Assembly (NCBI RefSeq): GCF_057098645.1
Contig: NZ_CM169472.1
DNA: 64,000 nt
Direction: 5' to 3' (one strand)
Shown: piece by piece, positions 6,001 to 9,000 of the stretch
Numbering within the stretch: the first letter of the stretch is position 1
Layout of the letters: each line of letters begins with the position of its first letter
Position numbers: made by a program

Positions 6001-9000
6001 CCACATAACGCTGACTCAGAACATTGAGCAGCCCGGGATAACCTGCCAGTACTTCACCAATAACCCTGTCGATTATTAACGCCTCTGAATCGGTACAATG
6101 TGCCAGCCAGCTTTTTTGATTGCCGTTGATCATATCCCGCAAAAAAGCCTCAAGTTCAGGTTTGTCCAGACCCGCTTTTTTCATCCTCCGGAGCGCCTCG
6201 TTAATTGCCGTTTTTGTCAGCTTTTTAGAGGTCAGTAATTGGTTGAACATATTTCCCGTCTTACCGTCGCCAATATACGACCAACGCCCCCACATACGCA
6301 GTTTCCCCTGGATCCAGACACTTTCCAGCGTTTTCAGGCGTAAATGCTCACCGCTTTTGCCTGTAATTTCCGGGTATATCATATTTATGCTCACTCACTT
6401 TCAATTTTGTAAATCTTCACGCCCAGCCGCCCACCAGAAACGAGCTGGCCGCGCACAATATTGATTTCATCAAACTGCTCGTCGTCTATGAGAAGTCCGG
6501 CATGCGTCAGCGCATCCAGTGGTGCTTTCAGGATATTGTCCAGGTCACGACGGCGCTTATCCGGTGGCTCTGCAATAATCTTTATCGCCAGCCTTCCGGA
6601 CAGGTTTAATTTCAGCCGCTGCTGGCGAACAATAAGTGCCACATCCCGGCGATAACGCTCACCGGCTTTTGATACAAAATATGTGCTGCCACGACGTCGC
6701 CAGTAGGTGTTCACCGTCGGCGGGTAAGGCAAAACAAACTCTCTACGCATCAGTAACCTCTTTTACCCGAGCACGCCGGTTGCAAAGGCGTGATCAAGAA
6801 AACGAAAAATTAAATCAACCTGGGAACCATGCTTTTCTTCGAACGCCAGCGGATCCGCATGAAGCTCGTTGTGATGCTCCCGACACAGCGGTAGCGTGAA
6901 AATATCGTGGGATTTTGTTCCCATTCCGCCCTGACCATGACCAATCAGATGATGAGGATCGTCCGCTGGCTTACCACAACACGCACACGGCTGTGTCTTT
7001 ACCCAGCGTGTGTATTTCTCATTTACCCAGCGGCGACGTTTAGGTCGTTTCATGAAGGATTCCGGAGACTCCGGATCAACGGCAATGCTGACCACCGTCT
7101 TTTCCTGTGGTGGGTTCTGTTGCTGGTGGGTGTGAGGCGGTAGCGCAATATTTTTTGTGCGCTGCTTCAGTATGCTGGTGGCGGTCTGTTCTCCCGGTAT
7201 GATGTCGCTTTCACGGTATACGGAGCGGATTTTTTCCGCCGGTAATCCCAGAGAGCGACGCGATACTGCCTCAGGTAATGCGTCCACCACCTGATTGCAG
7301 ACTGCCCACCAGGATAATTCAGCCAGCGATAATTCCCGCTCCTGCGTGCCATTCATTACATGGCGTATGACGTCAATCATCCAGGCTGTCAGATTTTGTT
7401 GAGTAAGTTGCTCAAGTGATTCGGAGGTCTGGTCGCGCAGCTGGTTGTCGCAGTGCCAGCACAACACCATTGCGCCAGCACCGTAACTGTGAATAACGGT
7501 TTCGCTGTGATGATAATCGCCGTGTGGCCACTGGCAGGATTTCACGTGACGTAATAACCAGTCAGACAGTGCACCAGCGCCGCCAGCTGCACGAATCACC
7601 CGCTCATCGCTGAAAAATGGCAGCAGTGATTTATCTTCCGCCAGCGGCTGGCGAACAGCAGGAACCGCTCCAGATGGCAGCGCCCGCATGTTTTTCGGTT
7701 CCGGCTCCACCAGCACCCTGCCGCGATGAAAAACTGGCAATGATTCACGACCGGGCTTAAGGACCACCAGCCCGAGTTCCGGAACCAGAACAGGTCGAAG
7801 TAATACCCGCACATTACCTCCAGACGCGCTGACGGTAGCAGGCATGTGTCCGTGGCAGATGTGCACGAACAGGAAGATATACAGAAACGGTCCAGGTCAG
7901 ACGATCAGAGTTCAGACTCCGCTCCACACGGACACCGCGACGCAGATACGCCTCTTGAAGCATATCTGCCTCATCGATCGTACAGAACAGATAGTGAAAC
8001 CAGCCATACTGAGGCGCACGAAAACGCCTCCCCTGCTTAATTTCCGGGTCGGCTTCAGAATTGTGGGATTTTATGTGTTGTGTCATCGGATTCTCCGGTG
8101 ACAGCAGGTGTCAGTTGTTCAGGCTGACTGCGCGAATTGTAAGGCAATACGCCGGAATGTACAAACAGAAAACCCGTCAGTAAGACGGGCTTAACAAGCA
8201 GGGGCGGTTACTTTAATAATTTCAGTGCCTTTACATCAACTTCAACACTGCTCAGGTCTTTATCAATTTCACCCTCAATTCTTACTTTGTCTTTCGGAGA
8301 AACATTCTGCCCGGCCCATACGCTGTCATCAATATCCGTGACAATTGTCCCGCTATTGTCACGAAACTCATAACGTTCATCACCCACTTTTTTAACGATG
8401 CTCCCTTCAAGGATAACCCATGCATCATCCTTCAGTTCTTTTGCCTGCGCTACTGTTGAACGCTCTGCTTCTGGCCCCTGGAAACCACCCTGCTGTGCAA
8501 AAGCGCCAAAAGACACACCGGAAATAAGTGCTGCAATCAATACCTTTTTCATTCATAGTCCTCTTTCAGAGATGAACATTCAAACAGCATTTTCAGTATG
8601 GTAAAGCGCGGGTGCGTTGAGGATGCCTGACACATCAGAGGTGGCGGGAGATTACTCCCCCGCCTGGTCTCTTACTTCTCAGATTCGTAGTCTACGAAGA
8701 CAGCGACCTCCGTCTGACCGGTTCGGATTCGCACCTCGCAGAGGTCTTTCCTCGTTACCAGTGCCGTCACTATGACGGTTAAACAGATGACGATCAGGGC
8801 GATTAACATCGCCTTTTGCTGCTTCATAGCCTGCTTCTCCTTGCCTTTCGGCACGTAAGAGGCTAACCTACATGTGTTCAGCATGGATTGAGCCTCAGAT
8901 TAATGTTAAGCGTCTTGCAGGACGCGTAATGTTAACTGGGGCTTTTCTCTATCTGCCGTTGGTGTTCATGCCCGAGGCAGATAGCCTCAAGCACCCGCTG

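Follow-up and report, generated by a model that had tools for sequence, protein, structure and literature searches.

A sequence-only reading of the 64,000-nucleotide stretch of contig NZ_CM169472.1 analysed here (the window, to whose numbering all positions refer) proposed that a prophage-borne Hok toxin is preceded by an overlapping mok-like leader ORF and opposed by an antisense Sok RNA from the plus strand, which raises the question of whether this locus is a complete and working type I toxin-antitoxin module. The hokW/mokW/sokW genes constitute the toxin and antisense RNA module of the Shiga-toxin phage 933W. Our analysis makes it very probable that the locus is an intact hokW/mokW/sokW module that lies in the early (nin) region of a lambdoid prophage and works in the manner of the plasmid R1 system. 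This identification is correct but ordinary and already known, since the module was annotated in 933W in 1999 and tested experimentally in 2021.

The toxin gene is an ORF on the minus strand (8672-8827), identified by ORF calling, Pfam and the RNA folds, that encodes a protein of 51 amino acids (MKQQKAMLIALIVICLTVIVTALVTRKDLCEVRIRTGQTEVAVFVDYESEK) identical to HokW of 933W and Sakai prophage 5 (Sp5) and is preceded by the Shine-Dalgarno (SD) sequence AAGGAG (8842-8837, minus strand). The proposed assignment to the Hok family was borne out by this ORF and by a match to the Pfam model HOK_GEF (PF01848; E = 1.1e-22, 79.8 bits against a cutoff of 22), and 11 invariant columns are common to the window protein, HokB, HokC, HokD and the Hok of R1. 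Scores with the NCBIfam Hok models, at both the subfamily and the equivalog level, remain below the cutoffs (53.6 versus 73), and we therefore regard the protein as a family member and not as an equivalog of R1 Hok or HokA. A mok-type leader ORF of 70 amino acids, annotated as mokW in 933W, is indeed present at 8672-8884 on the same strand, but it does not occupy a separate frame: mok and hok share their frame and their stop codon, and Mok is thus Hok with a 19-residue N-terminal extension. The mokC and mokW ORFs are likewise in-frame extensions of hok, whereas R1 mok and mokB overlap hok out of frame. In the window, the mok start codon lies 8 nt downstream of the mok SD GAGG, and an ATG 57 nt upstream of hok and in frame with it is found in 40 of 46 related versions.

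The conserved hok/sok module runs from about 9030 to 8600, on the minus strand for hok, and all of its elements are present and uninterrupted over this span. The interval given originally, 8553-8900, holds hok, mok, the 3' UTR, the fold-back element fbi, the Sok promoter and the first 25 nt of Sok, but omits the 5' third of the module, namely the rest of Sok (to 8946), the leader with its tac element (to 8996) and the hok promoter (to about 9030); its first position, 8553, is the base adjoining the start codon of the downstream gene. Three of 421 nt, at 8999, 8919 and 8664, differ between the window module and hokW-sokW of Sp5 or 933W, and all three substitutions fall outside the ORFs, the promoter hexamers, the Sok tail, tac and fbi. 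The window sequence is 98.5% identical to the mokW/hokW/sokW annotation of 933W, and a segment of 601 bp is 100% identical in many complete STEC genomes, with 505 matching records whose best place shows at least 99% identity. Complete E. coli genomes with a match number 4,720. RefSeq records annotate only a 51-aa 'Hok/Gef family protein' at the locus and lack mok, Sok and the RNA elements. The practical value of the present analysis lies in the correct annotation of the locus, and coordinates for loci of this kind should extend about 130 nt further upstream of hok.

On the minus strand, a putative hok promoter at 9003-9030 consists of a -35 hexamer TTGCGG (9030-9025), a 16-nt spacer and a -10 hexamer TAGAAT (9008-9003); it is weak and falls below the threshold of a generic scanner, and its -10 box is conserved (alignment columns 3-8) and aligns with the TATAAT of R1-type loci. 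The 5' end of the hok mRNA carries the tac element (GGGUGCUUGAGG; 8985-8996, minus strand), placed by folding and by the start of the Rfam model RF01794 at 8996, which matches the hok leader end to end from 8822 to 8996 (113.5 bits, gathering score 59, E = 4.8e-25). Downstream of tac follow ucb, an anti-SD element (AGCCCC, 8938-8943, minus strand) located by folding, and a Sok-target hairpin (8861-8897, minus strand) taken from the Rfam structure, which contains the mok SD GAGG (8896-8893), the mok AUG (8884-8882) and the loop CUGAACA with its YUNR-type CUGA. Beyond hok, folds place a stem-loop (GCGGGGGAG-UAAU-CUCCCGC) in the 3' UTR at 8643-8663 (minus strand), probably the equivalent of the hairpin that protects the 3' end of truncated R1 hok mRNA (PMC9841398), and folds and conservation place fbi, the fold-back inhibitory element (CCUCAACGCACCC), at 8610-8622 (minus strand).

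The 399-nt hok mRNA folds with z = -7.9, and in the full-length fold tac (8996-8985) pairs with fbi (8622-8610) with a probability of 0.97-1.0. Across 51 hok loci, the tac/fbi helix is 97.2% paired, against 36-53% when the partners are slid, with 3 compensatory pairs, and the corresponding figures for the leader structure are 77.6% and 31-44%, with 14 compensatory pairs and a covariation score reached by none of 500 shuffles; the plasmid hok loci L006, L007, L008 and L012, which are cut by IS elements or replaced upstream, were left out of this structure test. In the Sok-target hairpin (helix 5 of the leader) pairing reaches 87%, both partners have changed in 5 of its pairs, and 18 of 19 alleles keep a hairpin. 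Two forms of the leader emerge: a closed form in the full-length minimum free energy (MFE) fold, in which ucb engages the mok SD in a helix and the mok AUG is likewise paired, and an open form, the Rfam consensus with covariation, in which ucb pairs with tac and the target hairpin is present. MFE folds of the 3'-truncated hok mRNA gave a local 5' hairpin and no tac-ucb helix, and the enforced Rfam open structure lies 6.4 kcal/mol above the MFE of the truncated RNA; the open form is therefore supported by the Rfam match and by covariation, and not by thermodynamic prediction.

The proposed antisense RNA, opposite the region upstream of hok, was substantiated on the plus strand by a promoter match, by its fold and by the sokW feature of 933W. 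A pattern match identified the Sok promoter at 8841-8869 (-35 TTGCCT at 8841-8846, a 17-nt spacer and -10 TAACCT at 8864-8869); this is the single match to the pattern in the window, where 0.01 is expected, and in other hok loci the hexamers are conserved or nearer to consensus. The predicted Sok RNA itself, with coordinates transferred from 933W, is 71 nt long and occupies 8876-8946. A promoter and terminator prediction had been suggested for the region around 8830-8900; the promoter lies there, and Sok extends past 8900. The first 14 nt of Sok (8876-8889) form a single-stranded tail complementary to the mok start region including the AUG, followed by a long terminator hairpin (8890-8944) and a U tract; the fold has a free energy of -30 kcal/mol (z = -5.0) and leaves the 14-nt tail free. 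The same Sok sequence acts as antitoxin in Sp5, and mutation of the Sp5 Sok -10 box with primer YO-421, exactly the TAACCT box, abolished antitoxin activity (Takada et al., 2021; PMC8621323). Absence of an antisense promoter and of fold-back elements conserved with known hok/sok loci had been named as speaking against the assignment; we found the Sok promoter, and the tac/fbi and leader helices are conserved.

A generic scan of 8450-9150 for sigma-70 promoters and intrinsic terminators reported nothing. It misses the Sok promoter because the -10 box matches the consensus at only 3 of 6 positions, and the Sok terminator because a long interrupted stem is invisible to the scanner. We rejected the empty scan as proof of absence, given that this -10 box with its 3 of 6 matches is experimentally required in Sp5. 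We also rejected the Rfam 'sok' match as the Sok gene itself: the match covers 175 nt on the hok strand, from tac to the hok AUG, and RF01794 therefore models the hok leader.

At its 3' end, the module adjoins a gene for a YgiW/YdeI-type OB-fold (BOF) protein (8208-8552, minus strand; domain search), a neighbour outside the toxin-antitoxin system, beyond which lies a terminator-like hairpin (8192-8170, minus strand). The class to which the window module belongs has no usual terminator after fbi and leads directly into the ygiW-like gene: no intrinsic terminator was found between fbi and the BOF gene in this class, unlike in most other classes. R1-style 3' processing and the true hok 3' end are consequently uncertain; shorter hokW RNAs have been seen, without assignment (Takada et al., 2021; PMC8621323). 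The hok and BOF genes form a cassette (9136-8161) common to the window and 933W. Of 80 prophage copies, 46 show homology to the module that ends at 8600, just beyond fbi.

The sequence elements, their conservation and the predicted pairings outline how an R1-like module would operate here. A stable hok mRNA would be made from the weak promoter, with its 5' tac paired to its 3' fbi and ucb masking the mok SD, so that the full-length RNA would be neither translated nor bound by Sok. Removal of the 3' end would let the leader refold and open the mok ribosome-binding site, and translation of hok would then follow through coupling to mok. From within the mok/hok start region, the plus-strand promoter would supply the short-lived 71-nt Sok, whose 14-nt 5' tail would pair with the mok start in the target hairpin, block translation of mok and therefore of hok, and mark the duplex for RNase III. 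Once the supply of Sok stops, Hok would enter the inner membrane and damage it. Early phage transcription through the module in the hok sense may silence the convergent Sok promoter; this read-through trigger, 3' processing, coupling to mok and activity of the module in this prophage are all inferred. For the Sp5 allele, 3 nt different, toxicity, Sok antitoxin activity, Sok -10 dependence, membrane location and an induction phenotype have been shown (PMC8621323), and in R1 only mok translation up to the hok start matters (PMC9841398).

Among prophage copies, the module varies most by far in its Sok-recognition core. This core comprises 25 nt (8892-8868) that include the mok start and the loop and arm of the target hairpin and form the first contact with Sok; it keeps the hairpin and the ATG, and the rest of the module is 90-100% conserved. 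STEC genomes contain many hok module copies each, with up to 11 hok/sok copies per genome in co-resident prophages. We tentatively raise the possibility, with more doubt than confidence, that prophage hok/sok modules are 'specificity alleles', private Sok/hok pairs of the co-resident prophages, each fired on its own once early transcription of its prophage runs through the module and shuts off the convergent Sok promoter, and that the class in which a ygiW-like gene replaces the post-fbi terminator might thereby couple Hok release to expression of a periplasmic stress protein. Core variation and terminator loss are relevant to the question of how several toxins under antisense control can exist side by side without cross-talk.

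The window module lies in the PR-side nin region, with a DUF551 gene on one side and DUF968/RusA/Q on the other, in a prophage that has an IS3-family element in its left arm and of which the window stops short of the late genes. It runs in the same direction as the PR-side early genes here, and in 36 of the 43 prophage contexts compared the module is co-directional with the ORFs on either side. The proposed absence of a relBE pair next to hok was confirmed by a tblastn search of the 64 kb with two RelE and two RelB proteins, which returned nothing better than E = 1, and RelE was found within 3 kb in none of 80 prophage copies. The relBE-hokD (relBEF) arrangement is thus absent from the window, which has a full hok leader and no RelB or RelE homologue.

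What, then, would such a module do for the prophage? In Sp5, hokW-sokW acts on RecA-dependent prophage induction, advancing lysis and raising the phage yield; the measured effect after mitomycin C was earlier growth arrest and twofold more phage released, and deletion of hokW-sokW left the growth of uninduced lysogens unchanged (Takada et al., 2021; PMC8621323). The window module may well play the same lysis-assisting role; it adds a further prophage setting to those of a system known to adjust when a Shiga-toxin phage lyses its host. That the system is functional but was selected for prophage stabilisation, through the killing of prophage-free segregants, or for abortive infection, and not for help in lysis, we consider a minority reading of perhaps one chance in a handful or slightly better. 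It draws on R1 hok/sok, which stabilises plasmids and lowers T4 plating (cited in PMC8621323 and PMC10305079), on the annotation 'prophage maintenance' in the 933W record, and on the spread of modules of about 415 bp across many unrelated prophage contexts and P1-like plasmids, as would be expected of an addiction cassette, but the effect found for the near-identical Sp5 allele concerns lysis and phage release on induction, and PADLOC returned no matching model for Hok, Mok, BOF or DUF551. Stabilisation or abortive infection and help in lysis are not mutually exclusive.

Two further readings concern the module itself. We judge it improbable that the real product is a 70-aa in-frame Mok-Hok fusion, with mok providing the toxin's own start and not a coupling leader. 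The shared frame and stop, here and in the same 40 versions, mean that translation from the mok AUG yields an extended Hok; against this reading, 6 of 46 close versions, like R1-type and hokB loci, have either an out-of-frame mok or no mok ATG; no other part of the module varies as much as the first mok codons, which is not what a selected peptide would show; a strong SD of its own precedes hok; hokW alone is toxic from its own ATG in Sp5 (PMC8621323); and the R1 requirement for mok translation ends at the hok start (PMC9841398). Far less credible still is a decayed, silent relic, inactivated by IS elements, rearrangement or loss of its regulator. Such decay is seen in K-12, where IS186 takes the place of fbi in hokC and hokD lacks everything upstream of the hok SD, as well as in several IS-cut plasmid copies, and the same prophage carries an IS element of its own; but in the window no element between 9030 and 8600 is missing or broken, the sequence shares 99.3% identity with the Sp5 allele, whose activity has been shown, and the 601-bp segment recurs unchanged in many complete STEC genomes. 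We conclude that an intact, R1-like hokW/mokW/sokW module is the best description of the locus.

Among known systems, the module of 933W and Sp5 (AF125520; Takada et al., 2021; PMC8621323) is the closest, with identical Hok, Mok, Sok promoter, Sok tail, tac and fbi, 418 of 421 nt identical, and the same downstream ygiW-like gene and short upstream segment. Of the differing positions, 8999 falls in the short stretch from the hok -10 box to +1, 8919 in the loop at the tip of the Sok hairpin, and 8664 at the base of the 3' stem-loop. The sites also differ: on the prophage map of 933W the module stands at the right end, and only circularisation brings it downstream of PL/int, whereas the window module is in the PR-side nin region.

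The hok/mok/sok (parB) locus of plasmid R1 has the same architecture of tac, ucb, mok SD, target hairpin, dcb, hok SD, 3' stem-loop and fbi, with the Sok promoter in the same place and helices that keep their pairing through compensatory changes. The window copy differs from it in being phage-borne and not plasmid-borne, in its Hok (44% protein identity), in the in-frame mok, which is out of frame in R1-type loci, in a Sok hairpin longer by 17-18 nt, giving the 71-nt Sok, and in the absence of the terminator hairpin after fbi. As for the suggested comparison with hokD (relF) of the K-12 Qin prophage, this is the closest chromosomal Hok (92% identity), and its DNA is homologous to the window from the hok SD through fbi, but relBE replaces the promoter, tac, the Sok gene and the mok start; hokD is therefore a 5'-truncated derivative of the module without antisense control of its own, whereas the window copy is the complete form, with hokW as its closest relative. 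The hokC/mokC/sokC (gef) locus of K-12 shares with the window copy an in-frame mok and the same leader organisation at 80% Hok identity, but IS186 has taken away its fbi, and its Sok hairpin is without the additional 17-18 nt found in the window copy.

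We identified on the minus strand of the window a 51-aa hok ORF (8672-8827), whose product belongs to the Hok/Gef family (Pfam PF01848, E = 1.1e-22; 79.8 bits, cutoff 22), and an overlapping 70-aa mok ORF (8672-8884), both present in the ORF list and in features transferred from the Stx2 phage 933W, whose record annotates mokW, hokW and the sokW antisense RNA and from which the Sok coordinates were likewise obtained. Since the two ORFs end at one stop codon, mok equals hok plus 19 extra N-terminal residues. The hok region was 98.5% identical to 933W, VT2-Sakai and other Stx phages in a phage collection search; compared with both 933W and VT2-Sakai (Sakai prophage 5, Sp5), the window shows three differences over 421 nt (9010-8590), substitutions at 8999 (between the hok -10 box and +1), 8919 (apical loop of the Sok hairpin) and 8664 (foot of the 3' stem-loop). 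Many complete E. coli genomes, O26 and O145 STEC among them, carry the 601 bp surrounding the locus at 100% identity, and annotation there is confined to "Hok/Gef family protein" and "NirD/YgiW/YdeI family stress tolerance protein". The best place reaches at least 99% identity to these 601 bp in 505 matching records, and 4,720 of 5,426 genomes have related sequence, at up to 11 places each. Neither a second hok copy nor a RelB or RelE homologue was found in the 64 kb of the window. The sequence-only reading, which had proposed a Hok toxin with a mok-like overlapping leader ORF, a plus-strand Sok-like RNA opposite the region upstream of hok and no accompanying relBE pair, was correct in observation and interpretation, but the module already has a name, an annotation and an experimental characterisation.

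For the Sp5 allele, HokW is toxic and is neutralised by sokW RNA expressed from its own promoter, with a partial contribution of RNase III and Hfq, and toxicity returns when the -10 box of sokW is mutated (Takada et al., 2021; PMC8621323); primer YO-421 of that study alters exactly the TAACCT box found at 8864-8869 in the window. Mitomycin C treatment leads, in a RecA-dependent manner, to loss of sokW RNA and appearance of HokW in the inner membrane, and deletion of hokW-sokW from Sp5 delays growth arrest by ~40 min and halves phage release (Takada et al., 2021; PMC8621323).

A generic promoter and terminator scan of the hok locus reported no elements, an effect of the scan thresholds rather than of missing elements. 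Pattern matching located a plus-strand Sok promoter (-35 TTGCCT, 8841-8846; 17-nt spacer; -10 TAACCT, 8864-8869) that matches once in the window against 0.01 expected by chance. The predicted 71-nt Sok RNA (8876-8946, plus strand) has a computed fold of -30 kcal/mol (z = -5.0) in which a 14-nt tail (8876-8889) stays unpaired ahead of a long hairpin and a U tract; this tail is complementary to the sequence around the mok AUG. Scanned against Rfam, the whole window also gave an end-to-end hit to RF01794 ("sok") at 8822-8996 (175 nt; 113.5 bits, gathering score 59), on the minus, hok-sense strand from the mRNA 5' end and tac to the hok AUG. RF01794 therefore recognises the hok leader and not the antisense gene as such; its strand and its 175-nt span exclude it as a model of the 71-nt Sok RNA, and the strand of its matches should not be taken for the antitoxin strand.

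The computed fold of the 399-nt hok mRNA (z = -7.9) has its two ends paired, tac (8996-8985) with fbi (8622-8610) on the minus strand, at a predicted probability of 0.97-1.0 with +1 set at 8996. In this full-length fold the mok Shine-Dalgarno sequence GAGG (8896-8893) is paired with ucb (8943-8938), and the AUG of mok is likewise in a helix, as in the "closed" form described for plasmid R1 hok, whose mechanism comprises tac/fbi, ucb, dcb, mok coupling, 3' processing and a metastable 5' hairpin (PMC9841398). Removing the 3' end in silico frees tac into a local 5' hairpin; the Rfam "open" structure lies 6.4 kcal/mol above the minimum free energy of the truncated mRNA, so the exact active fold is not readable from thermodynamics alone. 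We examined conservation in an alignment of 51 sequences (A3), comprising the window, 45 other distinct hokW/hokD-type versions from IMG/VR prophage contigs, one P1-like plasmid copy, K-12 hokB and three intact R1-type plasmid loci. The tac/fbi helix was 97.2% paired, against 36-53% with the partners slid, with three pairs in which both partners have changed (in R1-type loci, for instance, U-A has become C-G). The Rfam-derived leader structure was 77.6% paired, against 31-44% when slid, with 14 doubly changed pairs (at one, A-U 30, G-C 15 and U-A 4 times) and a covariation score reached by none of 500 shuffles. The two features on which the sequence-only reading had staked itself, an antisense promoter and conserved fold-back elements, are thus both present. 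In the window, in mokC and in 40 of the 46 close versions, mok is read in the frame of hok; the two frames differ in mokB and R1-type loci, where PGAP annotates mok as DUF5431. Such a distribution agrees with the view that what counts is the act of translating mok rather than its product (PMC9841398).

Among prophage copies (loci L015-L094), the most variable part is the Sok-recognition core (8892-8868, minus strand), comprising the mok start and the loop and 5' arm of the target hairpin: 0.72 bit per column, versus 0.10 both in the hok CDS and in the stretch from Sok promoter to hok SD. We distinguished 19 hairpin and 16 tail-target alleles, the latter differing by a median of six mismatches over the 14-nt target (15 alignment columns). 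Hairpin and ATG are kept despite this variation, 18 of the 19 hairpin alleles being predicted still to fold (-7.5 to -10.3 kcal/mol), and in two same-genome pairs (L054/L084 and L064/L073) the alleles differ within each pair. Selection for non-cross-reacting Sok/hok pairs could underlie the variation.

Homology of the window copy to the other prophage copies ends abruptly at 8600 for 46 of the 80 loci, and the 5' break falls most commonly at 9004-9019; DUF551 lies upstream in 20, the ygiW-like BOF gene downstream in 23 and RelE nearby in none of the 80. A canonical terminator (AACCCGCUUCGGCGGGUUUUUU) directly follows fbi in most module classes and is absent from the window/Sp5/933W class of 23 loci (window 8553-8609), in which ~55 nt after fbi lead to BOF (8552-8208). 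The first terminator-like hairpin after BOF (8192-8170, minus strand) ends a 976-bp cassette common to the window and 933W, and hok and BOF may be co-transcribed. The missing terminator and the variable core are the sole parts of the module that might merit more work. At the other end, an unannotated hydrophobic 27-aa ORF (9038-9121, minus strand; MTWPEAFTTVGIAMAVALVVYSICRWG), without Pfam or NCBIfam match, overlaps the DUF551 stop codon with its ATG (ATGA), inside the segment common with 933W.

The lambdoid prophage occupies the first 22 kb of the window, its integrase gene (21084-22109) adjoining tRNA-Ser(CGA) (22162-22251), the likely attachment site. The integrase is followed by a YdaS/YdaT-type immunity region (~13.5-14.7 kb), a DnaC-like gene, DUF1627, DUF4014, DUF551 and the hok module, then BOF, DUF968, RusA, Q, tRNAs, a nanS-p-type esterase and holin. 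Here hok is co-directional with the PR-side operon. In 933W the module occupies the right-hand extreme of the map, where it shares the strand of PL-N-int and would be downstream of PL only after circularisation. By crude ORF calls, 36 of 43 distinct prophage contexts have their nearest upstream ORF pointing the same way as hok. From these orientations we propose that early read-through in the hok sense would interfere with the convergent Sok promoter, which would account for the induction-dependent Sok loss reported for Sp5.

Elsewhere in the prophage, an AraC-type regulator, tRNA-Met(CAT), tRNA-Arg(TCT) and an STnc100 sRNA match lie between Q (5828-6394) and the esterase (1346-3196) (features at 3334-3506, 4276-4528 and 4557-5270, minus strand), a layout similar to the late region of Stx phages. 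A related prophage of E. coli E2865, whose hok region is 100% identical, has a RelE/ParE-RelB pair ~5.5 kb off beside its immunity region, where the window (11245-15117) has its different YdaS/YdaT-type region without relBE. ALIL frameshift-pseudoknot matches of equal score (120.2 bits) and opposite orientation (17166-17282, minus; 40467-40583, plus) point to an IS3-family element in two copies; one of them (16350-17563, minus; ORFs 16350-17240 and 17237-17563) is in the prophage left arm beside a DicF antisense RNA gene (17650-17701, plus, 75 bits), a gene that Qin-type prophages also carry. Beyond tRNA-Ser(CGA) are four tRNA-Asn(GTT) genes (23243-23318, 52977-53052, 54800-54875 and 57209-57284), and Rfam matches in the ~30 kb between the first two (EFASI, 26979-27107; C4 antisense RNA, 28922-29008; isrK and c4-a1b1, 29030-29106) suggest a second integrated element.

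Finally, we compared the module with K-12 and plasmid loci. Complete modules, 87-88% identical, occur on non-mobilizable plasmids of ~93-102 kb (pE94-3 and similar), probably P1-like phage-plasmids, where they adjoin phage antirepressor genes and the toxin is named HokD by PGAP. In K-12 hokD (relF, in Qin), homology to the window is confined to the segment that begins at the hok SD and runs through fbi (8600-8845; alignment A1), with relE in place of the promoter, tac, Sok and mok start. The match of K-12 hokC extends from the promoter to shortly beyond the stop codon, where IS186 follows (A1). Judged by these alignments, hokD/relF is a 5'-truncated copy of the window-type module, and the window copy is the complete form relative to both K-12 loci.
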